Source: a virus | Strand: one strand, 5' to 3' | Virus genome (UHGV): UHGV-0371537 | Length of the DNA: 64,000 nucleotides | Shown: positions 9,799 to 62,175 of the stretch, in pieces | Position numbering within the stretch: the stretch's first letter is position 1 | Layout of the letters: each line of letters starts with the position of its first letter | Program-made: the position numbers and the translations under genes | The notes under the pieces: model-generated | Told to the model about the DNA's origin: nothing | Database searches by the model: none | Seen by the model: the letters and a program-made list of their open reading frames with translations, nothing else

Positions 9799-9834
9799 CT
9801 AAATACCCCATATTGGTCATCCTTTATGGGGTAT
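9799..9834 (+). promoter_or_regulatory. late-promoter-like CTAAATA plus 9-bp hairpin covering the SD region
   Basis: ATACCCCAT (9803-9811) pairs with ATGGGGTAT (9826-9834); ATG 9839. Confidence 0.5.
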
Positions 9835-11834: not shown

Positions 11835-11978
11835 CTAATTGAAGTTAGTGGGTATATTACAGGAGGTAAAATATTCTTTAGAAGGTTATTCAGAAGCGGC
11901 TCTCCTGTTGATGTTCAGATAACAGATCTGATAACAGGTTATGCATCAATAGACTTGAGCTTTACTTGCCAGCTATAA
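11835..11978 (+). pseudogene. vestigial C-terminal fragment of a tailspike gene
   Basis: Translates to EVSGYITGGKIFFRRLFRSGSPVDVQITDLITGYASIDLSFTCQL*, homologous to the last ~45 aa of the 9839-11788 tailspike (core GKI(F/Y)FRRLFRSG 11 of 12 identical) but divergent at DNA level; no start codon. Confidence 0.6.
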
Positions 11979-11983
11979 ACAAA

Positions 11984-12010
11984 AACCCCGCTTCGGCGGG
12001 GTTAGTTTTA
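11984..12010 (+). terminator. rho-independent terminator (AACCCCGC-TTCG-GCGGGGTT)
   Basis: 8-bp GC-rich stem with TTCG loop followed by T-rich tail. Confidence 0.7.
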
Positions 12011-12278
12011 TCATCAGAATGGTATTGAATCACTGTTGGTAATAGTAGGCTCATTGCCTCTTGGTTGGTTTGGATGCTGTTCAGTATAACCGGTTCCAAC
12101 CAAACCAATGAGGCAGTGGGTAAGGGGGGTTTTTGTTGTACCCCAAACAATTCATTAGGTAGACTGTTTTAGTCAATTACGACTTAACTAACCTGAGAAA
12201 ATCCCTATGGGAAATGAACCAGATAACGTAACTCTAGCCAGACTCGAAGAGAGACTGAGAAACATTTTCGAAAACCAA

Positions 12279-12305
12279 AACCCCGCTTCGGCGGGGTTCT
12301 TATTA
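12279..12305 (+). terminator. rho-independent terminator, second exact copy
   Basis: Identical 20-mer AACCCCGCTTCGGCGGGGTT followed by CTTATTAT. Confidence 0.7.
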
Positions 12306-12336
12306 TATCCATGTTCATAAATTTTATTAGTTCAGG

Positions 12337-12373
12337 CTAAATACCCCATATTGGCAAATCCTCTATGGGGTAT
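12337..12373 (+). promoter_or_regulatory. late-promoter-like CTAAATA plus 9-bp hairpin covering the SD region
   Basis: ATACCCCAT (12341-12349) pairs with ATGGGGTAT (12365-12373); ATG 12380. Confidence 0.5.
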
Positions 12374-12379
12374 CTTCAA

Positions 12380-15022
12380 ATGACCAGAAACGTCGAGAGC
12401 ATCTTTGGAGCGGTCGTAACAGCTCCGCACCAGATTCCATACACTTACACAGCAACGGGCGGAGAGAAGTTTATCTCCCTCCCGTTCTATCCTGTTACGG
12501 GCTTCATCACCATCAATGGGGGTGTTCAGGTTCCGACAGACAATTTCGAAATCGATGGTAACACTGTCAACCTGGGTCGAGCACTTGAGACCGGGGATGT
12601 TGTGTATTGCTTGTTTGACAAGATCCTGTCTCCAGAAGATTATGAAAACGGGATCCGCATCTACAAGTTCCAGACCGTTGGTAACGAGACCTCATTCACC
12701 CCAGACTTCACGACATATGGTGTGCAGTCTCTGTATGTTGACGGGAAGTTCCAGGTGCCGGACGTCAACTACACGTATTCCCCAACCAATGGTGTCGTTA
12801 ATTTCCTGACTGGATCTCCGGCGGCTGGTGTTTGGGTTGTTGCAGAAATGTCTGTGAAGCAGCCAAACATTTCCCCTCTCTTCGATAGAACAATTCAAGA
12901 AGTGGCCAGATCTGCGAAAGTTAAGGACTCGGATGTTGTTATCGCTGTATCCGGTGCTTCACTTTCTTCCAAGAAAGTCATCTTTGATAAAACTGCGCAA
13001 AGATGGTACTCGCTGTCAACCGGGTTGACTTCCACGGTGGTCAGTTTGGTTGATGGAATCCTCACTCACTCTTCAGGTACTGTTGATTTAGGTGCGCTGG
13101 CGGTTACTCGTGGCGAATATTTCACCATGTCTGAAACCTTCACAACCGGGTTCACAATCAGAGTGAAGAATGAGATCGTCAGCGACGGAACATATCTTTA
13201 TCGCTGGGCTGGTAGTTTGCCAAAAGTTGTTTCCGCTGGAACAACCGTGGACAACACCGGGGGTGTGAGTGCGAGTGCCTGGGTGAGATCAGATCAAAGA
13301 ACCATCAGCACCGTCAAGAGACAACTACAGCAATCCTACACGATGGCAGAATTAGTGGCCAAAACTGACATACAGTTGGGCGACTCTTTCCTTTGCTCGG
13401 ACAGGGCATATGGTGTTTATGACGTCGTTTCTTCGGTGGCTTACCCACCAAATGGTTATTCGAACGTAGTCAGCACAGTGAACTCCGGTTTGGTGTTCAG
13501 ACTGCGTGTGGTTGCTAACACAATCGATTTGGAGCAAATTGGTGGTAAGCCTCTCATCTGGGGAACCCAAGAAATCGACTGTAAACAGGCGTTGCAGGAA
13601 GCTTTCTATCTCTTGCTCGACTCCGAGAGCGCGACGGTTGATCTGAAGTCCAACAAATGGTTGCTGTCATCTTATGTGTTCAACGACGTCAAACAGCGCC
13701 GGAAAATTGTTGGTAACAACGCCATTATCTATGGGATGCCAGATGACGGTGTGACCAACTATGATTACCTGGTGAGTACTGCATGGAACTACCAAGACAT
13801 CGAAGGTGTTACGTTCGACTGTCAGTGGAACCCTCGTTATGCATGCTGTCTCCGTATCACTCATGGGTACGGACGATACGATGGCCTGACGATTCGTAAA
13901 GCTCGTTGCGCCATTCAGGTTGGTAAGAGCGAGGAAAGCCGGGTCAGCCTCAGCGAATTCATGTTCACACAACTTCGCACTGAAGAATGTGCGAAAGTCG
14001 CAATTGTTCACGGGCTTTATTCTGTGCTTAACATCAGCGATTCCATCGTGGCTTGCGGCGAGGGCGCTTTCTGGAAAACATATGACTGTACCGGGTTCAC
14101 CATCTATGGTGGTCGCGTATTCCTGATGAAATGTGGGGGCAACAGCAACGTCATCAACTTAGACAACCCTTATGTCTATTGCGCAAATACCACGGTTGCA
14201 GGCGCTCCATATATCGGTTCGTTCAACGCAGTGCAGTGCGACTTTGAATTCAGGACTCGCTTCTGCATCGTGAACGATACGACGACAGTTTATCAAGATT
14301 ACAACCAAGCAGTTGTTCTTGATTCTTGCCGAATTGGTGTATTCGCCAGCCTGGACTCTCGTGCGTTGAATTTCTTTGAAAGTAACGTCGGATACCGTGG
14401 GCAGCTCCGGATTAAGAACACAGATCTTCTGTTCGACACCACCGTGTCTCTGCCGCCGATCAAAGCTGGTGGGCATACCATCGTGGATATTGATTATGAT
14501 TCGATCTACATTCCTAACTTCAGGGGTCCAAAGATGGTCAGCTTCGCTGGTTATCCTCCGGTTCTTCCAGTCGGGATTGTGTTCCAGAACAACGTTGGGG
14601 CTGACACTCCTCTTTCTGGTAACCAGTTTGTGAACTTTTCTAACCCGATCATTGGCTTGGATTCTGATTCCTCTCTGCTTAGCAGCAACTGGAACTCGTC
14701 CACCAAGAAATTCGAATTGCCTCCTGGTGGCTTGAGTGATGTTACCGTCACTGTACGTCTGACATTGAAAGATCCTGCCACCGCCCCGGTGACAGCGTTG
14801 GTGGAATACAACAACGGCACAGCGATTGGACTTGCATTCGGGACAATCCCGGTTGGATCCAAAGATCTTTTGATCACTGGCAGGATCCGGGATCTTCGAG
14901 ATACAGCCCAGATATATTGTATCACGAGTTCTACAGCGGCGTACACCCTCAGCAATACCGGGGCATATGACTCTACTATGACAATTGAGGCCAGCATTCG
15001 GCCTCCGAAGACTAAAAGTTAA
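12380..15022 (+). CDS. tailspike protein, long form (TSP2-like)
   Basis: Internal anchor domain (VTRGEYFTM, VKNEIVSDGTYLYRW); track start ATG 12365 lies in the 3-prime arm of the promoter-proximal hairpin, ATG 12380 is in frame 15 nt downstream. Confidence 0.75.
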   Translation: MTRNVESIFGAVVTAPHQIPYTYTATGGEKFISLPFYPVTGFITINGGVQVPTDNFEIDGNTVNLGRALETGDVVYCLFDKILSPEDYENGIRIYKFQTVGNETSFTPDFTTYGVQSLYVDGKFQVPDVNYTYSPTNGVVNFLTGSPAAGVWVVAEMSVKQPNISPLFDRTIQEVARSAKVKDSDVVIAVSGASLSSKKVIFDKTAQRWYSLSTGLTSTVVSLVDGILTHSSGTVDLGALAVTRGEYFTMSETFTTGFTIRVKNEIVSDGTYLYRWAGSLPKVVSAGTTVDNTGGVSASAWVRSDQRTISTVKRQLQQSYTMAELVAKTDIQLGDSFLCSDRAYGVYDVVSSVAYPPNGYSNVVSTVNSGLVFRLRVVANTIDLEQIGGKPLIWGTQEIDCKQALQEAFYLLLDSESATVDLKSNKWLLSSYVFNDVKQRRKIVGNNAIIYGMPDDGVTNYDYLVSTAWNYQDIEGVTFDCQWNPRYACCLRITHGYGRYDGLTIRKARCAIQVGKSEESRVSLSEFMFTQLRTEECAKVAIVHGLYSVLNISDSIVACGEGAFWKTYDCTGFTIYGGRVFLMKCGGNSNVINLDNPYVYCANTTVAGAPYIGSFNAVQCDFEFRTRFCIVNDTTTVYQDYNQAVVLDSCRIGVFASLDSRALNFFESNVGYRGQLRIKNTDLLFDTTVSLPPIKAGGHTIVDIDYDSIYIPNFRGPKMVSFAGYPPVLPVGIVFQNNVGADTPLSGNQFVNFSNPIIGLDSDSSLLSSNWNSSTKKFELPPGGLSDVTVTVRLTLKDPATAPVTALVEYNNGTAIGLAFGTIPVGSKDLLITGRIRDLRDTAQIYCITSSTAAYTLSNTGAYDSTMTIEASIRPPKTKS

Positions 15023-50893: not shown

Positions 50894-52093
50894 ATGAAAG
50901 ATAAAGCCCTGGACGTCCCGTACTGCGGTGTCCGCGAAGAAAAGATAAAGTCGGCCAAACCGGTTCTCAGTCCGACCCATACCCGCCTGTCTTATGACTG
51001 GATGAGCGAGCGCTATAAGATCCACGTTCGAAAGGACGTCCAGCGTCTTCCTGCTCCTTGGACGAATAATCCTATACTACGGCAGGTCAAGTTCTGTAAC
51101 GTCCGGAGAGAGCACGACAGGCAGTCTCTTAACCTGATCAACAACATCGTCAACAACGATGCTCTGGGTATGGCAGACAAGATGTTTAACTGCGTGCTGT
51201 TCCGCATGTTCAACCTCTGGGATCCGATCCAGGCTATCGGCGGCGCGATGACGATCAAAGAATTCGCCAAGATTAATCTTGACGCAACCCGTGAACGACT
51301 TCAGAAGTTCGAGGCTGACGGTGGTAAGGTATTCACCAATGCCTTCAACACAGGCGGCCTGAAGCAATGCCTGGCTTTCCCTGAGATGGTTGTCAACCAC
51401 AAGGAGCAGCTCTTCGGTGGGATGATGGTGAAAGTGTATCGCGTTGGCCAGGGTATTGTGGACGAGATGGACTACAAGGTCGCCAAGAAGCTGGTCGAAG
51501 AGAATCCTGGTGAATATACCATCGAGGGATGGGAACCGTACATGCCAATGCGTGTCATCCGTTCCCTGAAGGCATTCGTCAACAAGTATCCAAATTACTT
51601 CCATGACCTGCTGCGCCTTGGTACTCCTCTGGAAGTATACCAGCGCATGTACGACGACATCGAAGGGCTTGGTCCATTCCTGGCTTATCAGATCTGGGTG
51701 GACTTCACGTACATTCCTGAGTATCCGTTTAGTGAGAACCACTTCACGGTTGCTGGACCAGGCTGTCGTGCAGGCATCGACCTGATGTTCCTGAACAAAG
51801 ACGGTATGACCCACGAAGAATGCATCTTCTGGTTACGGGACAACCAGGACGCAGTGTATTCCCAATATGGATATGTTCGTGAGCAATTCTGGTCTGCGGA
51901 AGAGCCTTGGGATCAGTGTATGAATGTTCAACAATTAGAAAACCACTTTTGTGAATTGTCGAAATATACCCGTTGTGTAGAGGCTTTACAGCAAGGTAAA
52001 AAACCGCGCGGGAAGGTTGGATACGATGGGGAAGGACAACCTAAAGCGGCGACATCTGGTTCTAAAAACCTACTAAATTTATTTAAAAAGTAA
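50894..52093 (+). CDS. hypothetical protein (399 aa)
   Basis: Long ORF; no motif recognised by eye. Confidence 0.5.
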   Translation: MKDKALDVPYCGVREEKIKSAKPVLSPTHTRLSYDWMSERYKIHVRKDVQRLPAPWTNNPILRQVKFCNVRREHDRQSLNLINNIVNNDALGMADKMFNCVLFRMFNLWDPIQAIGGAMTIKEFAKINLDATRERLQKFEADGGKVFTNAFNTGGLKQCLAFPEMVVNHKEQLFGGMMVKVYRVGQGIVDEMDYKVAKKLVEENPGEYTIEGWEPYMPMRVIRSLKAFVNKYPNYFHDLLRLGTPLEVYQRMYDDIEGLGPFLAYQIWVDFTYIPEYPFSENHFTVAGPGCRAGIDLMFLNKDGMTHEECIFWLRDNQDAVYSQYGYVREQFWSAEEPWDQCMNVQQLENHFCELSKYTRCVEALQQGKKPRGKVGYDGEGQPKAATSGSKNLLNLFKK

Positions 52094-52152: not shown

Positions 52153-53082
52153 ATGTTTTACGAATTATTGATTTCTAAAGGCGGTAAACCGCATTTTATC
52201 AAGAAGTATTTGAGGATGGTTCAATCTTTCAAATATTCTGATAGTGACTACACTGAATTACACCACATCCTTCCCAAGAGCATGTTCCCTGAATATTCTA
52301 AAGATAAGATAAATTTGGTTCGATTAACAGGCAGACAACATTATCTTGTCCATGTATGCTTGGCCTTGGCTTTCCCAAACACGAGAATGGTGTATGCTGT
52401 TGTAGCTATGAGAAAGGGAGGAAGAAGAAATAAATCAGGTATTCGGTTTAATTCTCATTTGTATGAAAGTTTCAGAATTAAATTCAGCGAACAACTATCT
52501 TTACAATGGAAAGGGGTTTCTCGGTTTGTGGGTAAAGACAACCCAATGTATGGGAGAAGAGGAAAGAATAATCCCCAATATGGGTATAAGAGAACTCCAG
52601 AGCAAGTCAAGAAAATTACCAAAGGATTGATGAAAATCCATGAAAGGATGGCTTCTGATCCGGAATATAAAAGAGAAGTTTTAGAGCAGCGTCGTACCAA
52701 TACGGATTTAAAGCAATTTTCTGAGCGTTCCCGCCAAGCAAAACTCGGTGAACTCAATCCTAATTATGGGAAGGACTTAACCAACTCTTTCACACCGGAA
52801 CAACGCGCCAAACAGAAAGAAAACGCTCAGAAAGGCATGTTGGCTAAGATGCCTTGGGAGAAGGGTAAATGGAACCCCGACAATGACGTATATTGGGAGA
52901 AAGCTGATCAATTCCTTGAAGCCCTGAATACGATGAAACGTTCAGAAGCCCTCTTGTTCGTGTATGGAACAAAAGATCTGAAGGCGTTTAATGCCACCAG
53001 TGGGATAATCGAACGTTTCAATAAAGGCTGGGAACCATTAAAATGCGTAAAATGGTTAAAAAGATATAAGGGTGAAAAATGA
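52153..53082 (+). CDS. HNH homing endonuclease
   Basis: ELHHILPKSMFPEYSKDKINLVRLTGRQHYLVH is an HNH core; repeated NP.YG(R/K) NUMOD-like motifs. Confidence 0.7.
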   Translation: MFYELLISKGGKPHFIKKYLRMVQSFKYSDSDYTELHHILPKSMFPEYSKDKINLVRLTGRQHYLVHVCLALAFPNTRMVYAVVAMRKGGRRNKSGIRFNSHLYESFRIKFSEQLSLQWKGVSRFVGKDNPMYGRRGKNNPQYGYKRTPEQVKKITKGLMKIHERMASDPEYKREVLEQRRTNTDLKQFSERSRQAKLGELNPNYGKDLTNSFTPEQRAKQKENAQKGMLAKMPWEKGKWNPDNDVYWEKADQFLEALNTMKRSEALLFVYGTKDLKAFNATSGIIERFNKGWEPLKCVKWLKRYKGEK

Positions 53083-53422: not shown

Positions 53423-55441
53423 ATGTCAGAATTTAAGCCCTTCGCAGTAGCTGTTAACAACAACGTGCTGGCCATGTCAGCAACTGGTCTGTTCATGACC
53501 AACATCGATAAAGATGCTCTGTGGGATCTGTATCTGTCTTCTTTCCCTGCTGGCACCAACCCGCTCTACCGTGAGCGTACCGAGCACGACTGCACCTGCT
53601 GCAAACAATTCATCCGTAATATCGGTGGTGTGGTTACCATCGACACTGACCTGAACGTGATCTCTATCTGGGATAACATTCAGCTGGGCAACGAATACGA
53701 CGTTGTCGCTGCGGCGCTGTCTGCGTATGTCAAGCAACACGCAATCGTCGACGTGTACTTCAACGATACCAAGAAAGTCGGTGTTGAGTCGAATCACGAA
53801 ATGAAAGACGGTAATGTCCGCACCTACAACCACTTCCACACCGACCTGCTGCCCAGCTATGTTCTGCGGGCTGATGCCATCGCTTCTAAGAAGGGTGAAA
53901 TCCGTCAGGCGATTGAAGTGTTTGAGCGCGGCCTGCGTGAACTGTCTCTGGAATCGGCTGAAATCGTTCTGGAATTGATCGACCAGAATTCTCTGTATCG
54001 CGGTGAAGAGCACAAGGCGGCAGTGCAGGCGTTCGTGGTGAACAAGACCCTGTACGAACAGACTGCAGAAGAGAAACGCGCTCTGTGGGCTTGGCGCACT
54101 GGCTATCATGCGAACGGTCATACCCCTCACGGCATTCGTAATACCGTGATTGGCTCTCTGTTGGTAGACCTCAACGAAGGCCGCGACCTGGAAACCGCCG
54201 TCAAGTCTTTCGAAGCCAAAGTAGCTCCGACGAACTACAAGCGCCCAACCGCGCTGGTAACTAAGTCGATGATCGAAAATGCGCAGAAAGAAGTTGAAGC
54301 GCTGGGTCTGACCGATTCACTGGGTCGCCGTTATGCCGTGTATGACGATCTGACCATCAACAACGTTCTGTTTGCCGACCTGGCAGCACAGAAGAAGATG
54401 GACCCGTTTGCTCAGCTGGCGTCTGAAGTGAAGACTCCGACCAAGTCCCTGGACAAGGTTGAAGAGATCACCATCGACGACTTCCTGGCGAACGTGCTGC
54501 CGAAAGCGCACTCAATGGAAGTGCTGGTTGAGAACTCTCACACTGGCAACCTGATGTCCCTGATCGCTCCGGCTACGGCAGGTGCTCCTAACCTGTTCAA
54601 GTGGAACAACGGCTTCAGCTGGTCATACAACGGTGAAGTGGCCGACTCCATCAAAGAGCGCGTGAAGACAGCAGGTGGCAACGTTGACGGTTTCCTCCGT
54701 GTGTCGCTGGCGTGGCATAACAACGACGACCTGGATCTGAGCCTGAACGATCCTTTACACAATCATGTGTATTACCACAACCGTCGCTCAGCAACTGGCG
54801 CAACCCTGGATATCGACATGAACGGTATGGACGGCATTGACCCGAATCGCCGCCCGGTGGAGAACATCTTCTTCAGCGATGAGCGCAAGCTGCGTAATGG
54901 TCTGTACGAGTTCTATGTCACTAACTTCAGCCAGCGTGAAACCTGTGATATGGGCTTCGAAATCGAAGTCGAATACAAAGGCCAGACCAAGCGTTTTTCG
55001 CATCCTGGCCTGAAGCACAAAGATCGCACTCTGGCTGTTGTGATTGATGTCCGCGCCGGACAGGTGGTAGACATCCGCTCTACTCTGAAAGACGATGCTC
55101 GTTCTCAGGAAATCTGGGGCATCAAGACCTCGGTCTTCCAGAAGGTACAGCTGGTTCTGAACTCACCAAACCATTGGGACGGCGAGCAGACGGGCAACAA
55201 GCACGTGTTCTTCATCCTGGAAGGTTGTGCTAACCCTGTCGGCACTCGTGGCTTCTATAACGAATATCTGAAGCCGGAACTGGATAAACACCGTAAGGTT
55301 TTTGAAATGTTAGGTAGTAAGATGAAAGTACAGCCAAGCACTGAGCAGCTGTCCGGTCTGGGCTTCTCTACCACCCAACGCAACCACGTGTTCGTGAAGG
55401 TGAGCGGCTCGTTCAACCGCACTGTAAAAGTTGTGTTCTAA
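53423..55441 (+). CDS. hypothetical protein (672 aa), unknown function
   Basis: Uninterrupted 2-kb ORF; no Walker, HxGH or other motif recognised. Confidence 0.55.
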   Translation: MSEFKPFAVAVNNNVLAMSATGLFMTNIDKDALWDLYLSSFPAGTNPLYRERTEHDCTCCKQFIRNIGGVVTIDTDLNVISIWDNIQLGNEYDVVAAALSAYVKQHAIVDVYFNDTKKVGVESNHEMKDGNVRTYNHFHTDLLPSYVLRADAIASKKGEIRQAIEVFERGLRELSLESAEIVLELIDQNSLYRGEEHKAAVQAFVVNKTLYEQTAEEKRALWAWRTGYHANGHTPHGIRNTVIGSLLVDLNEGRDLETAVKSFEAKVAPTNYKRPTALVTKSMIENAQKEVEALGLTDSLGRRYAVYDDLTINNVLFADLAAQKKMDPFAQLASEVKTPTKSLDKVEEITIDDFLANVLPKAHSMEVLVENSHTGNLMSLIAPATAGAPNLFKWNNGFSWSYNGEVADSIKERVKTAGGNVDGFLRVSLAWHNNDDLDLSLNDPLHNHVYYHNRRSATGATLDIDMNGMDGIDPNRRPVENIFFSDERKLRNGLYEFYVTNFSQRETCDMGFEIEVEYKGQTKRFSHPGLKHKDRTLAVVIDVRAGQVVDIRSTLKDDARSQEIWGIKTSVFQKVQLVLNSPNHWDGEQTGNKHVFFILEGCANPVGTRGFYNEYLKPELDKHRKVFEMLGSKMKVQPSTEQLSGLGFSTTQRNHVFVKVSGSFNRTVKVVF

Positions 55442-55921: not shown

Positions 55922-56716
55922 ATGACAACCATCAATCGTAATGAACCCAAAGGTGTTGAGCTGAAGGGTAAATCTGTTCGCGAAGGTCTGAAGCTGTCTC
56001 CAGACCTCCTGAAGTCCCACATTGCTGAAGTCATCTATGAAGACCGTGAAGTCGGCGGTCATCGTGTCATCACCTGCCACTTCAAGATGGATAATGGATT
56101 TATCGTCTGGGGCAAGAATAGCTCTACTTCCATCGACCCTGCCAACTTTGATGAAGAGTTGGGTAAGAAGCTGGCCTATGACAAGACCTTCTCTCAGTTG
56201 TGGGAACTGGAAGCCTACCGCGCCGTTGTGGAGAAGCAGATGTTGGAGGTGGCTACCGCCGATGCGAAGATAGACATCTTCCAGTACATCTCCGAAAGGG
56301 GGAAGATAAATCAGATGGCTGGTATGGAATTCTTGCAAGGCCACGGTCAGTCTTTCGTGTTCCGACATCCACGAGACCCAAGCCGGGGTTTCTGTGCTGA
56401 ATTTATTCAGACTGACAACGAACGCCACAACGAACAATTCAATGGTAAATCCCGAGAGAAGGTTGAAACCTATCTGCGTTCGTTCATGCACCCGGATGAA
56501 TTGTATTCTGAACTCGTTGTCCGTCTGGCAAAGACATGCATGGCGGCTTACAAGGGTGGGATCTACTTCAATGCCACCACTTGGGATAAGATGAGCGCCG
56601 AAGAACAGAAAGACTGCTGTGAAGGCATCAGGCGGCTCTTGCTGGCTCCGGCGGATTATATCCCAACTGATCAGAAGGACGCGCTGTTCAAGGCCATCGT
56701 CGATTCCTACAAATAA
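55922..56716 (+). CDS. hypothetical protein (264 aa)
   Basis: ORF immediately upstream of the Prs-like/Nampt-like operon; followed by terminator 56747-56776. Confidence 0.5.
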   Translation: MTTINRNEPKGVELKGKSVREGLKLSPDLLKSHIAEVIYEDREVGGHRVITCHFKMDNGFIVWGKNSSTSIDPANFDEELGKKLAYDKTFSQLWELEAYRAVVEKQMLEVATADAKIDIFQYISERGKINQMAGMEFLQGHGQSFVFRHPRDPSRGFCAEFIQTDNERHNEQFNGKSREKVETYLRSFMHPDELYSELVVRLAKTCMAAYKGGIYFNATTWDKMSAEEQKDCCEGIRRLLLAPADYIPTDQKDALFKAIVDSYK

Positions 56717-56826: not shown

Positions 56827-57681
56827 ATGTTTCGTTTGAAATTGAACGACCAAGATGTGTTCTATAAGCACTTCACCTTCCCAGGTGGTGAGGAACATAT
56901 CAAGATCCAAAAGGCTGGAATCCCTATCGGCCACGTCCAGAACGTGGTGATTGATGCTCACATCAAATCCTCTGCTGACTTCGTTGAGCTGGCACTGCTG
57001 GTTAACGCTGTTCGTGGCCTGGGTAACGTGGACCGTCTGACGGCATTCCATGCATATATCCCGTACTTCCCATATGCGCGTCAGGATCGTCATTGTGACT
57101 TTGGTGAGCCTCTGTCCGTGAAGTGGGCGGCTGAGTTCATCAACAGCATGAACTTTGACCGCGTGGCGATCAAAGACCCTCATAGCCATGTCGTGTCTTC
57201 TCTGATCAACAACGTCCATGTGGTCCCGCAAGATTACATCGTGCGTCAATATCTGGGCTGGTTCATTCGCGGCAACAATGCTGTGCTGGTAGCCCCTGAC
57301 GGCGGCGCGGCGAAGAAGACCGAAGCCCTCAGCCTGTCATTGGACGGCGTTCCTGTTGTCTACGGACACAAGAACCGTGACACCAAGACTGGTGAGATCA
57401 TTGGGGTGAGTATTACAAACCCTGAACTGATCAAAGACCGCTATCTGGTTGTGGTTGATGATATCTGCGACGGTGGGCGCACGTTTGTTGAGCTGGGCAA
57501 AGAGCTTCAGAAGCACGAGCCTAAGCACATGACGCTCTTCGTCACCCATGGCATCTTCAGCAAAGGTCTCTCTGTTTTCGACGGGATCTATGATGCTGTG
57601 TATGCCGACACTGTCTGGTGGGAGAACATCACCGCCGACGGTCTTCCTTTCAAAACTGAAAATACAGGACGTGTAAAATGA
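56827..57681 (+). CDS. ribose-phosphate pyrophosphokinase (Prs) family protein; candidate ADPR-pyrophosphate synthetase (Adps-like)
   Basis: YARQDR motif and phosphoribosyl-pyrophosphate binding loop VVVDDICDGGRT; 284 aa; 4-nt overlap with the downstream Nampt-like gene. Confidence 0.8.
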   Translation: MFRLKLNDQDVFYKHFTFPGGEEHIKIQKAGIPIGHVQNVVIDAHIKSSADFVELALLVNAVRGLGNVDRLTAFHAYIPYFPYARQDRHCDFGEPLSVKWAAEFINSMNFDRVAIKDPHSHVVSSLINNVHVVPQDYIVRQYLGWFIRGNNAVLVAPDGGAAKKTEALSLSLDGVPVVYGHKNRDTKTGEIIGVSITNPELIKDRYLVVVDDICDGGRTFVELGKELQKHEPKHMTLFVTHGIFSKGLSVFDGIYDAVYADTVWWENITADGLPFKTENTGRVK

Positions 57682-59342
57682 GCATGCGCCACTTAGATCC
57701 GATCCATGCAATCGACTTCTACAAATCAGGGCACATCTATCAGTTCCCTGAAGGCAGCGAGCTGGTGTTCTCCAACGGAACTCCGCGCTCCAACAAACTG
57801 TTCAACTCTCACCTGCCGAAGAACGGCGTGGTGGTCTGGGGCATCCAGGGCTTCATGACTTGGTTCCATGAACTGTTTGACGAAGCATTCTTCCAGCGCC
57901 CGAAGGCCAAGGTGTTGAAGAAGTATGCCCGTCGCATGAACAAAGTCCTGGGTCCAGGTCGTGTTGGTACAGAGCATATTGAAGCCCTGCATGACCTCGG
58001 CTACCTGCCTATCGAAGTCCGTGCGCTGCCCGAAGGCACCATGTGTCCGTATGGCGTTCCGGTGTATGTGATGTTCAACACCTTGCCGGAGTTCTACTGG
58101 CTGACCAACTATCTGGAGACTGTGTTCAGCTCTGAGATCTGGAAGCCGATGACGAACGCCACCATCGCCCTGCATTACAAGGCACTGATGGTGAAAGCCG
58201 CTATCGCTACAGGTGTGTCGCCGGACCATTGGTTCATCGACTACCAAGGCCACGACTTCTCCTTCCGTGGCATGAGCGGGTGGCATGACGCGGCGTCTTC
58301 CGGTTCCGGCCATTTGGTATTCTTCAAAGGCACCGATACCAACCCTGCCCTGGACTTCGTAGAAGAGTATTATGGCGCAGACATCGACGAAGACTATGTC
58401 GTTGCTGGTTCTGTTGCGGCTACCGAACACGCCGTGATGTGTATGGGCACGAAGGATGGTGAATTCGAAACCTTCCGCCGCCTGGTGCAGGACGTGTATC
58501 CTGATGGCATCGTCAGTATCGTATCTGATGCATGGGATTACTGGCAGGTCATCGACGACTATCTCCCTCGCCTGAAAGACATTATCATGGCGCGTAACGG
58601 TAAAGTCGTGATCCGCCCCGACTCGGGCGACCCAGTACACATCGTTGGCGGCTACCGCATCGAGGGGTTCAAAGACCGCGCCACGCTGAACATCAGCGGC
58701 GTGTCTAGCAGCACCGAAGTCATTCACATCGAAGAGACGAACACCTATCACCTGATCACAGGCGAAGGCACGATCAATTCTCTGATGGCAGACGACCGTA
58801 ATATCATCAGCCGTTCTGAAGCAGTCGGCTCTATCCAGCGCCTGTGGGAGATCTTTGGCGGTACTCAAACTGAGACTGGTCACTTCCTTTTGGATGATCA
58901 CATCGGTCTGATCTACGGCGACTCCATCACCCTGGCACGTGAAGACCAGATCTTTAGCCGTCTGGCTGGCCGGAACTTCGCTTCCATCAACGTGGTGTTC
59001 GGTATCGGTTCCTACACCTACCAGATGAACACCCGTGACAGTACTGGCACGGCAGTGAAAGCCACGGCTGGTAAAGTGAACGGCGAATTCCGTGAGATCT
59101 TCAAAGAGCCGAAGACCGACAAAGGCGGGACTAAAAAGTCTGCACGTGGTTTCCTTAAAGTCATTAAAGACTCTCAGGGTAAACTAGTGTTGGTTGACGG
59201 TATCACCTTTGATCAGGTACAAGACGCCGACAACCAGCACCAACTGGTGTATCGTGATGGTAAGTTCTTCAACACTCAGACTCTGGAAGATGCGCGTGTT
59301 CGTGCTGCTCCTCTGGTGGCGGAACTGGCCTCACAAATCTGA
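57678..59342 (+). CDS. nicotinamide phosphoribosyltransferase (Nampt/NadV) family protein; candidate nicotinamide ADPR transferase (Namat-like)
   Basis: GHDFSFRGMSG and surrounding region resemble Nampt family; 554 aa; coupled to the Prs-like gene. Confidence 0.8.
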   Translation: MSMRHLDPIHAIDFYKSGHIYQFPEGSELVFSNGTPRSNKLFNSHLPKNGVVVWGIQGFMTWFHELFDEAFFQRPKAKVLKKYARRMNKVLGPGRVGTEHIEALHDLGYLPIEVRALPEGTMCPYGVPVYVMFNTLPEFYWLTNYLETVFSSEIWKPMTNATIALHYKALMVKAAIATGVSPDHWFIDYQGHDFSFRGMSGWHDAASSGSGHLVFFKGTDTNPALDFVEEYYGADIDEDYVVAGSVAATEHAVMCMGTKDGEFETFRRLVQDVYPDGIVSIVSDAWDYWQVIDDYLPRLKDIIMARNGKVVIRPDSGDPVHIVGGYRIEGFKDRATLNISGVSSSTEVIHIEETNTYHLITGEGTINSLMADDRNIISRSEAVGSIQRLWEIFGGTQTETGHFLLDDHIGLIYGDSITLAREDQIFSRLAGRNFASINVVFGIGSYTYQMNTRDSTGTAVKATAGKVNGEFREIFKEPKTDKGGTKKSARGFLKVIKDSQGKLVLVDGITFDQVQDADNQHQLVYRDGKFFNTQTLEDARVRAAPLVAELASQI

Positions 59343-59349
59343 TAACCGA

Positions 59350-59371
59350 AGGGGAGGCAACTCCCCTGTTT
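59350..59371 (+). terminator. terminator-like hairpin after the Nampt-like gene
   Basis: AGGGGAG-GCAA-CTCCCCT followed by GTTT. Confidence 0.5.
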
Positions 59372-59383
59372 CGAGGTCGAGGA

Positions 59384-59554
59384 ATGTCCAAACCATTCAA
59401 AAATGCGGGTGTCGACAACCTCGACCGCCGCTTTAGCCCATCGGAAACGCTGATGAGTCAGATTGAACTCAATCGCGATTTCCTGGAACATATGCTGGTC
59501 AAGCCGGAAGGTGAGGCCGAAGACAACCCTGAAGAAGGCAATAACGATGATTGA
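59384..59554 (+). CDS. small acidic protein (56 aa)
   Basis: ATG 59384 after terminator hairpin; stop overlaps the start of the vWA gene; below ORF-track cutoff. Confidence 0.3.
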   Translation: MSKPFKNAGVDNLDRRFSPSETLMSQIELNRDFLEHMLVKPEGEAEDNPEEGNNDD

Positions 59555-61808
59555 ATCCCTGGAGTTTAAGAATGCGGTTTCGACTGTTGCTCCGTCCAAC
59601 CATGTAATCGTTGTGGACATCTCTTATTCGATGTACCGTGCGCTCCCTGAAGTCCGTAAGCACCTGAAGGAGAACCTGCCTTCCCTGGTGAAACCGGAAG
59701 ACACTGTGAGCCTCCTATACTTCTCATCCCGTGGCGACTTTGGTACTGTGTTCTCTGGTCGCCAGATCAGTGTTGCGTCTGATCTGAGCGAGCTGAACAA
59801 ACTGATTGATCGCTTCCTGCAACCATCCGGCTGTACTGGTTTTGTTGAACCTCTGGGTCTGGCGGTAGATACTGCGCGCAGTCTGAAGAAACCCGGCTAT
59901 GTCAACAACCTGGCATTCATGACCGATGGTTATGACAACTGCTGGCGCTCCAATGAGATCCTGGCCGTTGCCGAAACCTTGCCATTCGTCTTTGATAACA
60001 TCACTTTCATCGAATACGGCTGGTACTGTAACCGCGAACTGCTGGCTCAGATGTCTGAGCGTTCCGGCGCGACTCACGTGTTCGCCGAAGGCCAGACTGA
60101 ATATCAGACTGAGCTGGAAAACGTGTTGAAGTCCTCGGTGCCGAAGGTTCGTGTTGACGTTCCTCTGGTGTACACTCACGCCATTTATGTCGAAAACGGC
60201 GTAGCAACCGTGCTGGCGGTGCAAGCCGAAGCAAGAATGGATTTCCAGATTGGCGATGAGTCCGTAAAACGGAAAGTGATTGAAGTAGGCCACGTGAGCA
60301 TCCCTGAGAGCGTCACGAAGCTGTGGGTTGTCAATCCTAACATGATCGACCAGCTTGATGCGCTGGCGGACATCCAGGCGGCATACGTGCTGGCGTTCTA
60401 CGGCGTACACATCATGGACGCAGACCTGGTGTGGGCTGCACTGAAGAAAACGGGCGACGTTCGCTTCATCAAACAGTACAGCAACTGCTTCACCAAGCAG
60501 GACTACTCCAACATCAAAGTTGATCTGACCCAGGCCATCGTTGATGACCAGCTGCGCGGCGTTGATGGTATCGATTACAATATGGTCCCGGCTGAAGATG
60601 CCACGACCGTGGTTGATGTGCTGACGTACCTGGCCGAAGCTGGCGTGTCTGTTGCCACCAAGCACCCGATGTTCTCCTACAAGAGTATCGGTCGCGGTAC
60701 TGTACAGAAAGCCGACGACACCGAAGACAAACTGGCCGAAGAAATCGCGAACGCCCAGTCCAAAGAAGAGCGCAAAGCCCTGGCTCTCAAGCTGGCCGAG
60801 CACGAAGAGTGGACGCCGTCGTTTGAACCTGCCAATGATCTGGGTGTGGTTCCAATCAGCGACCTGGTCTATAACTCCGAGCGCCCGAACATCAGTGTGC
60901 GGACAGTGCAGCATGGTACTGTTGCAGTTCCTGAGTTCGCGCAGAAGAAGTACGGCCTGCCTGAAGAACTTGACACCTTCCAGTGGCGCAATTACACCAT
61001 CGTCAAAGATGGTATCATCAACGTGAAGACTCTACCGTTTAGACATACCGAATCACCAGTCCGGGGTGCTGAGGTTGTGCAAAAGCTGATCGAGATGGGC
61101 GTTCACGTGTTTGGTGGTCCAGAAGTGTTCATCTTGAACCTGGAAAGCGTACCGCTGGTCAACCGTGCGATGGTCAAGAACATCAGTGCTGCTCAGTTCT
61201 TTGCGGACAATGTCCGCCTGGAAGCCCTGAAAGGCAAGCAGAAGGTGCTGAAGTTCTATCGCGACGCTCTGGTTGGTAAAGGCAATGCCAAAGGTCTGGC
61301 TATTCAGTACGGCGCTGAGGCCGCAGAATACCTGTCTGGTGTTGGCATTCGCGATTACGGCTTCTCGCCGAAGACTGAGACCAAGGAGTCTACCGACTTC
61401 TACATGAGCCGTGAGCTGAACGTTAAGATCGCTGGCGCTTCTTCCCTGCCGAGCATCGCAGCGGTACAGAAGAAGATTGCCGACAAAAAGACTCTCAATG
61501 CGGGTGATATGTTCATCGCCAATGCCCTGAAAGAGTACGATGCATTCGTGAAGTCCCCGGCGATCACTGCCGTGCCTGAAGCCGTACAGAAACAGCTGAT
61601 CGAAAACTGGATCGACGCTGCTGCCAAGGCGGCCATCACTGAAGTCCGCGCTCTGAACAAGACGCTGTCTAAAGTGGTTTATGGTATCGTTGCTGGCCAC
61701 GGCTGGTTCACCGACCTCGACCTGGAAGAGTCCACCATGGAAGTTGAAGTGGATGGCGTGAAGTACAAGGTCACTGCCGAACTGGCAGAGAAAGAGATCA
61801 AAATCTAA
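59547..61808 (+). CDS. von Willebrand factor A (vWA) domain protein (754 aa)
   Basis: MIDAS-like VIVVDISYS (DxSxS) and downstream MTDGYDN near the N-terminus; start taken at ATG 59547 (track start 59463). Confidence 0.6.
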   Translation: MIESLEFKNAVSTVAPSNHVIVVDISYSMYRALPEVRKHLKENLPSLVKPEDTVSLLYFSSRGDFGTVFSGRQISVASDLSELNKLIDRFLQPSGCTGFVEPLGLAVDTARSLKKPGYVNNLAFMTDGYDNCWRSNEILAVAETLPFVFDNITFIEYGWYCNRELLAQMSERSGATHVFAEGQTEYQTELENVLKSSVPKVRVDVPLVYTHAIYVENGVATVLAVQAEARMDFQIGDESVKRKVIEVGHVSIPESVTKLWVVNPNMIDQLDALADIQAAYVLAFYGVHIMDADLVWAALKKTGDVRFIKQYSNCFTKQDYSNIKVDLTQAIVDDQLRGVDGIDYNMVPAEDATTVVDVLTYLAEAGVSVATKHPMFSYKSIGRGTVQKADDTEDKLAEEIANAQSKEERKALALKLAEHEEWTPSFEPANDLGVVPISDLVYNSERPNISVRTVQHGTVAVPEFAQKKYGLPEELDTFQWRNYTIVKDGIINVKTLPFRHTESPVRGAEVVQKLIEMGVHVFGGPEVFILNLESVPLVNRAMVKNISAAQFFADNVRLEALKGKQKVLKFYRDALVGKGNAKGLAIQYGAEAAEYLSGVGIRDYGFSPKTETKESTDFYMSRELNVKIAGASSLPSIAAVQKKIADKKTLNAGDMFIANALKEYDAFVKSPAITAVPEAVQKQLIENWIDAAAKAAITEVRALNKTLSKVVYGIVAGHGWFTDLDLEESTMEVEVDGVKYKVTAELAEKEIKI

Positions 61809-61851
61809 TCCAACAGGCGGGGCAACCCCGCCTTTCTTTGGGAGAAGTAAC

Positions 61852-62175
61852 ATGAGCGGTAAACCAACATATGTTGAGGTAATGCGCCACCTGGCCCGGT
61901 ACGCCACCGATAATCTGAATATGGATCTGTGGCGTGACGATGACAAGCGCAAACTGCTGGATGATGTGGCGGCTCAAAACGAGGATGCCCTGGACAAGCT
62001 GGCTGGCCTCCGCACCAAGAAAGACCTCGGCGGCGACGAACTCGATGCCATAGAAATCGTAATGGATCTCGAAGAAGAGTTTCAGGTCGAAATCGACGAC
62101 GGTTGGCTGGGTAGTAAAGGCGATGACCCGACCATGGGTGAACTCGCTGAACTCGTGGTCGCCCTGCGCAAATAA
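61852..62175 (+). CDS. acyl-carrier-protein-like protein with Glu in place of the phosphopantetheine Ser
   Basis: LGGDELDAIEIVMDLEEEFQVEI parallels ACP [23 protein letters not shown], with DSL replaced by DEL (GAA codon). Confidence 0.5.
   Translation: MSGKPTYVEVMRHLARYATDNLNMDLWRDDDKRKLLDDVAAQNEDALDKLAGLRTKKDLGGDELDAIEIVMDLEEEFQVEIDDGWLGSKGDDPTMGELAELVVALRK

Follow-up and report, generated by a model that had tools for sequence, protein, structure and literature searches.

What a large protein carrying a von Willebrand A (vWA) domain does for a bacteriophage is the question raised by positions 59384-61808 of the virus genome UHGV-0371537, where a small acidic open reading frame (ORF) runs into a much longer gene on the plus strand. 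The window analysed here is the whole 64,000-nucleotide stretch of that genome. The answer that we tentatively favour, at a little short of an even chance, is that the longer gene encodes a soluble, acidic, 83-kDa intracellular protein that works as a stand-alone, metal-dependent protein-protein adaptor and is expressed from a two-gene unit without late-promoter control. The evidence lies in the domain structure, in the distribution of the family and in the transcription signals around the gene, and each of these also bears on alternative roles.

Domain organization and the predicted metal site

The earlier note placed a protein of 754 amino acids, together with its small upstream ORF, at 59384-61808; the outer coordinates and the strand hold, while the length is revised to 753. 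The mechanical ORF opens at a TTG at 59463 (781 amino acids); the true start is the ATG at 59547, because all of the 50 aligned homologues begin at the methionine of the motif MIxxxEFK. The gene and its parts are laid out as follows.

59547..61808, plus strand: vWA-family protein gene, 753 amino acids and stop (from the ORF list and homologue starts; matches phrog_2426 over its full length)
59547..60134, plus strand: vWA domain, residues 1-196
59616..59630, plus strand: DxSxS motif (D24-I-S26-Y-S28) of the metal ion-dependent adhesion site (MIDAS), at least 90% conserved in 51 sequences and aligned to VFVIDISGSM of ITIH1
59835..59837, plus strand: MIDAS threonine T97 in the motif G-x-T-G-F, invariant in the alignment
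59925..59927, plus strand: MIDAS aspartate D127 in the motif F-M-T-D-G-Y-D-N, invariant in the alignment and aligned to LTDG of ITIH1
60135..60338, plus strand: beta-sandwich, residues 197-264, packed after the vWA domain
60339..61805, plus strand: phage-specific C-terminal region, residues 265-753

The N-terminus of the protein is a vWA domain with an intact and conserved MIDAS. The motifs from which the earlier note had recognized it are present (VIVVDISYS at residues 20-28 and MTDGYDN at residues 125-131), and they survive proper alignment: across the 51 sequences, which reach down to 33% identity, D24, S26 and S28 are each at least 90% conserved and T97 and D127 do not vary. The full-length protein scores weakly on the Pfam vWA models; the N-terminal 251 residues reach 26.8 bits on PF00092 (E 7e-6), above the gathering score of 23.8, and a search of the PDB with the family profile returns the vWA domain of ITIH1 (E 2.3e-5) with DxSxS and TDG aligned. 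The AlphaFold2 model is confident (pLDDT 88.6, pTM 0.73) and has the alpha/beta Rossmann-like fold of vWA domains, beginning at about residue 4 and leaving no N-terminal propeptide.

About 550 residues follow the vWA domain and, as the earlier note had it, no function can be assigned to them, but the first 68 or so form a beta-sandwich that belongs structurally with the vWA domain. Structural alignments to 8s05_B, 1m2v_B, 3eh2_A and 2nup_A extend over 263-292 residues, covering the vWA trunk and then the beta-sandwich. The same pairing is found in 4fx5, a Catenulispora vWA protein, and in ArnB (8s05_B), an archaeal protein resembling the Sec23/24 core; these differ from the phage protein in being only about 380-430 amino acids long, without the C-terminal region of about 490 residues, and share 11-16% sequence identity with it. 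ArnB moreover has as its partner the zinc-ribbon/FHA protein ArnA, and no such gene stands beside the phage vWA gene. In ITIH1 and ITIH4 the vWA/beta-sandwich module alone is related; the ITIH proteins come from animals, are secreted and carry a VIT domain at the N-terminus. The trunk and beta-sandwich of Sec23/Sec24 from the COPII coat match as well, whereas their zinc finger, helical domain and gelsolin-like domain have no counterpart in the phage protein; full Sec23/24 homology was rejected because the match stops at the trunk and beta-sandwich. An architecture like that of Ku70/Ku80 was also rejected, since no Ku core beta-barrel follows the vWA domain. Two loop insertions, at residues 232-245 (nucleotides 60240-60281, within the beta-sandwich) and 500-505, are lineage-specific and modelled at low pLDDT (about 62); they account for the length of 753 amino acids against 733-739 in close relatives and for the ceiling of about 91-94% on tblastn identity.

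By analogy with integrin I-domains, ITIH and ArnB-type vWA proteins, the vWA domain would hold Mg2+ or Mn2+ in its complete MIDAS and so capture a target protein by one of the target's acidic side chains. The beta-sandwich and the C-terminal region, in which R446, N448, S450, N482, D488, K566 and Y619 are invariant, may together supply a second binding or effector surface. The calculated mass is 83.3 kDa and the isoelectric point (pI) 5.2, and a protein this acidic is not expected to be a generic DNA binder.

Distribution of the family

The window is 92-93% identical in DNA, from 55.4 to 63.9 kb, to the Agtrevirus phages SKML-39, SP-9-14, ChubbyThor and Ag3 (Ackermannviridae), and its source is evidently an Agtrevirus-like phage of that family. 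The vWA protein matches phrog_2426 from end to end (E 0, 1232 bits, residues 1-753 on profile positions 2-736 of 736) and is 90-94% identical to proteins already annotated with a vWA domain; the GenBank label is 'vWA domain protein', and PHROG 2426 is listed as function unknown. Tblastn retrieved 504 phage records, 482 of which cover at least 80% of the query. They take in all lineages of the Ackermannviridae and, at about 47% identity, the Straboviridae genera Slopekvirus (KP15, KP27, Miller) and Karamvirus (GAP161); further homologues occur in pf16 (34%), in Bacillus phage PBS1 (26%) and in rhizobiophages, and SP-15 also carries one. A profile of the C-terminal region gathers about 1,355 clusters at 50% identity. 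The architecture is fixed, because nearly all of these clusters are 680-820 amino acids long with the C-terminal module starting at residue 200-240 or so. Only 14 loci were found in the genomes of 185,579 bacterial and archaeal species, and several of these loci lie on contigs the size of phage genomes (178-225 kb). The family is essentially restricted to phages.

Within the Ackermannviridae the gene is one of the 114 core genes of Vi01-like phages (PMC10892097, Table 5). This core gene, LIMEstone1 ORF108, gp87 of the Kuttervirus Maynard and its counterpart in Dickeya phage RC-2014 are full-length orthologues of the window protein at 90-94% identity, and the Ackermannviridae orthologues have the same MIDAS and C-terminal motifs. 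The window copy is an ordinary orthologue of an already annotated, uncharacterized phage family, and the locus adds nothing to the orthologues already sequenced; the interest that remains is in the family as a whole, which is core, widespread and has a large region with no recognized fold. The protein is among the larger conserved proteins of unknown function in the Ackermannviridae, which include therapy and biocontrol phages, and in many T4-like phages. If the MIDAS ligand were identified, a common component of phage 'dark matter' would acquire a function, and a weak point of the host or a novel kind of packaged protein might come to light. The gene is not mentioned in the pf16 paper, in a phage transposon-mutagenesis preprint or in the STEP3 virion paper.

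The question of a partner ATPase

The earlier note reasoned that vWA proteins usually work with a partner ATPase or as metal-dependent adaptors, and saw no obvious partner here. Dependence on an ATPase applies to the MoxR-linked subset only; the vWA/beta-sandwich module of the phage protein is shared with proteins that act without AAA+ partners (4fx5, ITIH1, ArnB and Sec23/24), which supports a stand-alone adaptor. The observation itself was borne out. No MoxR-type AAA+ gene flanks the pair in the window, and a scan for Walker-A motifs found no MoxR-like ORF in the 64-kb window or in SKML-39 from 50 to 100 kb, together about 114 kb of a genome of about 160 kb; two window ORFs match the Walker-A pattern, both of them genes other than the vWA gene. 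Nor is a MoxR/CobS-type AAA+ gene adjacent to the vWA gene in any of ten other contexts, and in KP15, PBS1, pf16, RHph_TM61, Maynard and most metagenomic contexts the gene has no AAA+ neighbour of any type.

The phage protein might still be the substrate-adaptor half of a MoxR-type AAA+/vWA pair such as RavA-ViaA, CbbQ-CbbO, NorQ-NorD or CobS-CobT, with the ATPase encoded elsewhere in the phage or provided by the host. Two distant metagenomic homologues (L020 and L026) are indeed encoded no more than about 4 kb from an AAA+ gene of ClpX/ClpB-D2 type, located at 11965-13194 and 12335-13729 respectively. These genes, however, are of Clp type and not MoxR, and their presence in those two contexts and not in others is probably a coincidence. 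In the MoxR-linked adaptors (ViaA, CbbO, NorD, BchD and CobT) the vWA domain is typically C-terminal, whereas in the phage protein it is N-terminal, the remainder of the protein is different and no AAA+ gene is linked. Because the hosts span Bacillus to Rhizobium, a single host ATPase partner is also unlikely. Membership of such a pair is considered very unlikely overall.

The C-terminal region

The region beyond the beta-sandwich, about 490 residues without structural precedent, consists in the model of a helical bundle, an alpha/beta segment, a beta-rich domain, long helices and a terminal beta-hairpin. Searches with its sequence against the PDB, Pfam and NCBIfam returned noise only, a search of BFVD returned members of the family only, and the protein has no match among the defence and anti-defence systems of PADLOC. 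Several motifs are strongly conserved (NCFTKQDYSN, RPNIS, RNYTIVKDGIxN, GIRDYGFSPK and the C-terminal EKEIKI), to the same degree as the MIDAS, and nine polar residues are invariant in the 51 sequences: D304, Y378, R446, N448, S450, N482, D488, K566 and Y619.

Such conservation might point to catalysis: this part of the protein could be an enzyme with a new fold and with protein, nucleotide or nucleic acid as its substrate, and the vWA domain would then only target or regulate it. The company that the gene keeps is compatible with this: in several lineages its frequent neighbours are genes of replication and nucleotide metabolism, namely PIF1 helicase, ligase, thymidylate synthase, DHFR, dCMP deaminase, clamp loader and DNA polymerase. 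On the other hand, neither sequence nor fold searches matched the region to an enzyme family, no cofactor- or nucleotide-binding motif was recognized (the Walker-A matches of the window lie in other genes), and conserved polar residues suit a binding interface equally well. An enzymatic function is regarded as rather improbable.

The small upstream gene

Two further elements lie at the 5' end of the vWA gene.

59384..59554, plus strand: small ORF, 56 amino acids (from the ORF list; phrog_8656, E 3e-37)
59534..59538, plus strand: putative Shine-Dalgarno-like element GAAGG, 8 nucleotides 5' of the vWA ATG and within the end of the small ORF, as read from the sequence

The small ORF occurs in 210 phage records, in every one of them directly upstream of the vWA gene, and the records align on a conserved helical core, AG.D.LD..F.P....Q.E.NR.F.E.ML; it is evidently a real, conserved gene. 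It is confined to Ackermannviridae-type phages; those T4-like phages that have the vWA gene lack it. In the window its product is acidic (pI 4.4, net charge -8). The earlier note described an ATGA overlap of four nucleotides with the start of the large gene; the overlap is in fact eight nucleotides (ATGATTGA, 59547-59554), the small ORF ending GAT GAT TGA and the vWA gene beginning ATG ATT GAA. The four-nucleotide ATGA overlap of this region is found at 57678-57681, between the two genes of the upstream nicotinamide adenine dinucleotide (NAD) cassette described below. Maynard has the identical eight-nucleotide overlap and a GAAGG/AAGG Shine-Dalgarno-like element 8 nucleotides 5' of the start, with a ribosome-binding site annotated at the equivalent position. 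Translational coupling of the two genes, as originally proposed, is both plausible and conserved.

In the Ackermannviridae the 56-residue protein would be made by this coupling in fixed proportion to the vWA protein, perhaps as a lineage-specific accessory or regulator and not as part of the core machine. The possibility that its acidic tail is itself the MIDAS ligand was rejected: the acidic tail is not conserved in Kuttervirus, where it is non-acidic, and the C-terminal NDD of the small protein is invariant because it overlaps the vWA start codon.

Transcription signals and timing of expression

The signals and the cassette that bound the two-gene unit are the following.

56827-59342, plus strand: NAD cassette (the Nampt-like operon of the earlier note), consisting of a Prs-like and a Nampt-like gene
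59351..59366, plus strand: weak hairpin GGGGAG-GCAA-CTCCCC with the tail TGTTTC, separating the Nampt-like gene from the small ORF, as read from the sequence
61815..61833, plus strand: strong intrinsic terminator AGGCGGGGCAACCCCGCCT followed by TTCTTT, closing the small-ORF/vWA unit; the same terminator follows the Maynard vWA gene

A motif, CTAAATA, is common to the intergenic regions upstream of structural genes. The window contains 12 copies against 4 expected, a number that none of 100 shuffles reached; they fall between 2825 and 44375 (for example at 9799, 12337, 17447, 28978, 34841 and 41187), most of them just 5' of structural genes, and are often extended to CTAAATAcCcc. This looks like the late-promoter motif of the phage. 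The T4-type late promoter TATAAATA was rejected for the window, its single match being at chance level. No CTAAATA lies within 15 kb of the vWA gene in the window or near the vWA operon of Maynard, and the operon is located outside the structural module, in a region of DNA metabolism.

The order in Maynard is a terminator, a sigma70-like promoter (TTGGCA-16-TAATAT, 9 of 12 consensus matches), the small ORF, the vWA gene and a terminator, and the ACP-like gene (for acyl carrier protein) follows (Maynard_86-88), as in the window. The two differ upstream: Maynard has its own promoter region 5' of the small ORF, while in the window that place is taken by the NAD cassette, which is specific to Agtrevirus. 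The 41 nucleotides that separate the small ORF from the Nampt-like gene gave no promoter match and leave no room for a promoter-like site; because this gap holds only the weak hairpin, the pair is probably read through from the NAD cassette, with transcription probably starting in a TATAAT-type promoter region upstream of 56827. Taken together, the lack of CTAAATA near the operon, the sigma70-like promoter in Maynard and the location among genes of DNA metabolism point to early or middle, not late, expression, at the level of consensus matching. A literature search yielded no relevant time-course transcriptome from the Ackermannviridae.

Occurrence in virions

The chief alternative to a role inside the cell is packaging into the virion. 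The protein would in that case be enclosed in the head or carried at low copy on the tail or baseplate, where it would stabilize the particle, or enter the cell with the DNA and act at the start of infection. Peptides detected in two related phages demonstrate that members of the family are expressed, and both detections were made in virion material. LIMEstone1 ORF108, 91% identical to the window protein, was among 39 virion proteins identified by mass spectrometry, with 6 unique peptides and 11.4% coverage, compared with one peptide each for the suspected contaminants rIIB, ligase, PhoH and gp44 (PMC3296691). Thanatos TH1_124, 46% identical, was likewise detected in a virion preparation, but that sample was non-specific, holding 104 of the 206 phage proteins, ligase and polynucleotide kinase among them.

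Other observations run counter to packaging. In CsCl-purified Sajous1 virions the vWA protein is not listed, although the orthologue of the adjacent ACP is, with one spectrum (PMC10892097). The earlier note had named being a known structural component as one of two outcomes that would overturn its proposal; the LIMEstone1 detection goes part of the way towards this, and the Sajous1 list does not. The PBS1 homologue is annotated 'hypothetical' beside neighbours flagged 'virion structural protein'. The gene has no CTAAATA motif nearby and no place in the structural module, the protein has no propeptide at its N-terminus, and none of the virion structures solved and deposited in the PDB includes a relative. 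On balance a virion-associated protein is held to be unlikely, though not strongly so.

The preferred reading, an intracellular stand-alone adaptor, draws its support from the fixed architecture, the status as a Vi01-like core gene, the lack of a conserved neighbour, the non-late placement and the setting among genes of replication and nucleotide metabolism. Four points weigh against it. No member of the PHROG 2426 family has a demonstrated target, metal binding or phenotype; the polar residues that never vary in the C-terminal region may belong to the active site of an enzyme, and the term 'adaptor' would then understate what the protein does; the promoter assignments are consensus matches alone, with the Maynard site at 9/12; and the presence of the LIMEstone1 orthologue in purified virions above the level of contaminants is explained as readily by packaging as by abundance in the cytoplasm.

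A bolder picture may be drawn from the same evidence, and is put forward as speculation that is improbable as a whole. The family would represent a class of 'grappling' proteins spread across phages, each with a MIDAS and a C-terminal region of new fold, expressed early yet present in some virions, which seize one host component conserved from Bacillus through Enterobacteria to Rhizobium (in replication, transcription or proteostasis, for example) and which in the Ackermannviridae are gated by the co-translated small protein.

Gene order and neighbouring genes

The gene order of the window follows that of Maynard: major capsid protein, UvsY/UvsW, clamp and clamp loader, RegA and a nucleoside triphosphate pyrophosphohydrolase, and then 5-hmdU DNA kinase, a 672-residue protein, small genes, the small ORF, the vWA gene and the ACP-like gene. 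Outside the Ackermannviridae, a comparison of KP15, PBS1, pf16, RHph_TM61 and seven metagenomic contexts showed no gene that is consistently found beside the vWA gene, which in these contexts often forms its own transcription unit.

The 5-hmdU DNA kinase gene lies at 50894-52093 on the plus strand (PF18723, 5-HMUDK, E 4e-81), and because the phage encodes this enzyme, its DNA very probably contains hypermodified thymidine, as in ViI. A part for the vWA protein in thymidine hypermodification, or in another DNA-modification pathway, might be suspected from the position of the kinase gene about 7.5 kb upstream, in an order conserved in the Ackermannviridae, and from the homologues in PBS1, whose DNA contains uracil, and in SP-15, whose DNA contains a hypermodified base. 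Nevertheless, the vWA protein is acidic, and its homologues abound in Slopekvirus, Karamvirus, pf16 and rhizobiophages, which do not appear among the phage groups listed as encoding 5-HMUDK (PMC5889632). Five recombinant ViI genes suffice to synthesize 5-NeOmdU, and the vWA protein is not mentioned in that account (PMC5889632). A role of this kind is highly improbable.

Between the kinase gene and the gene of the 672-residue protein lies an ORF of 309 amino acids with a NUMOD3 motif (52153-53082, plus strand), likely a homing endonuclease; in Maynard this position is without a gene, but an HNH endonuclease is encoded on the 5' side of the kinase gene. The 672-residue protein (53423-55441, plus strand) belongs to phrog_1735, of unknown function, has a CTCC motif close to its N-terminus and matches nothing in Pfam, NCBIfam or PADLOC. 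Its family is found in 559 diverse phage records (Ackermannviridae, Bacillus, Caulobacter, Vibrio, Xanthomonas and cyanophage), one of which names it 'putative DNA-directed RNA polymerase'. It was rejected as an obligate partner of the vWA protein: its distribution, extending to phages of Bacillus, Caulobacter, Vibrio and Xanthomonas, is unlike that of the vWA protein, and its 84 Klebsiella records against 160 for the vWA protein suggest that it is missing from many vWA-bearing Klebsiella phages. A protein of 264 amino acids (55922-56716, plus strand) has the N4 gp49/Sf6 gp66 domain (PF13876, E 4.5e-12), of unknown function.

Past the terminator, the ACP-like gene (61852-62175, plus strand; 107 amino acids) is a separate unit with no acyl-transfer partner nearby; its product scores 24.6 bits on PF00550 (gathering score 20.8) and falls in phrog_4154, 'acyl carrier protein'. 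A link between the vWA gene and NAD salvage was treated as coincidence, NAD-related genes lying within a few kb of it in the window, KP15 and PBS1 and being absent from its vicinity in Maynard, pf16, RHph_TM61 and most metagenomic contexts. The candidate host-interaction role that the earlier note drew from the position between the NAD cassette and the ACP-like gene is a conjecture, closeness to the cassette being peculiar to Agtrevirus. In the cassette itself the Prs-like gene encodes 284 amino acids and falls below all NCBIfam Prs cut-offs, and the Nampt-like gene encodes 554. The pair matches the two-gene layout (Adps and Namat) of NARP1, a phage pathway that reconstitutes NAD+ against NAD-depleting defences (bioRxiv 10.1101/2024.02.11.579819).

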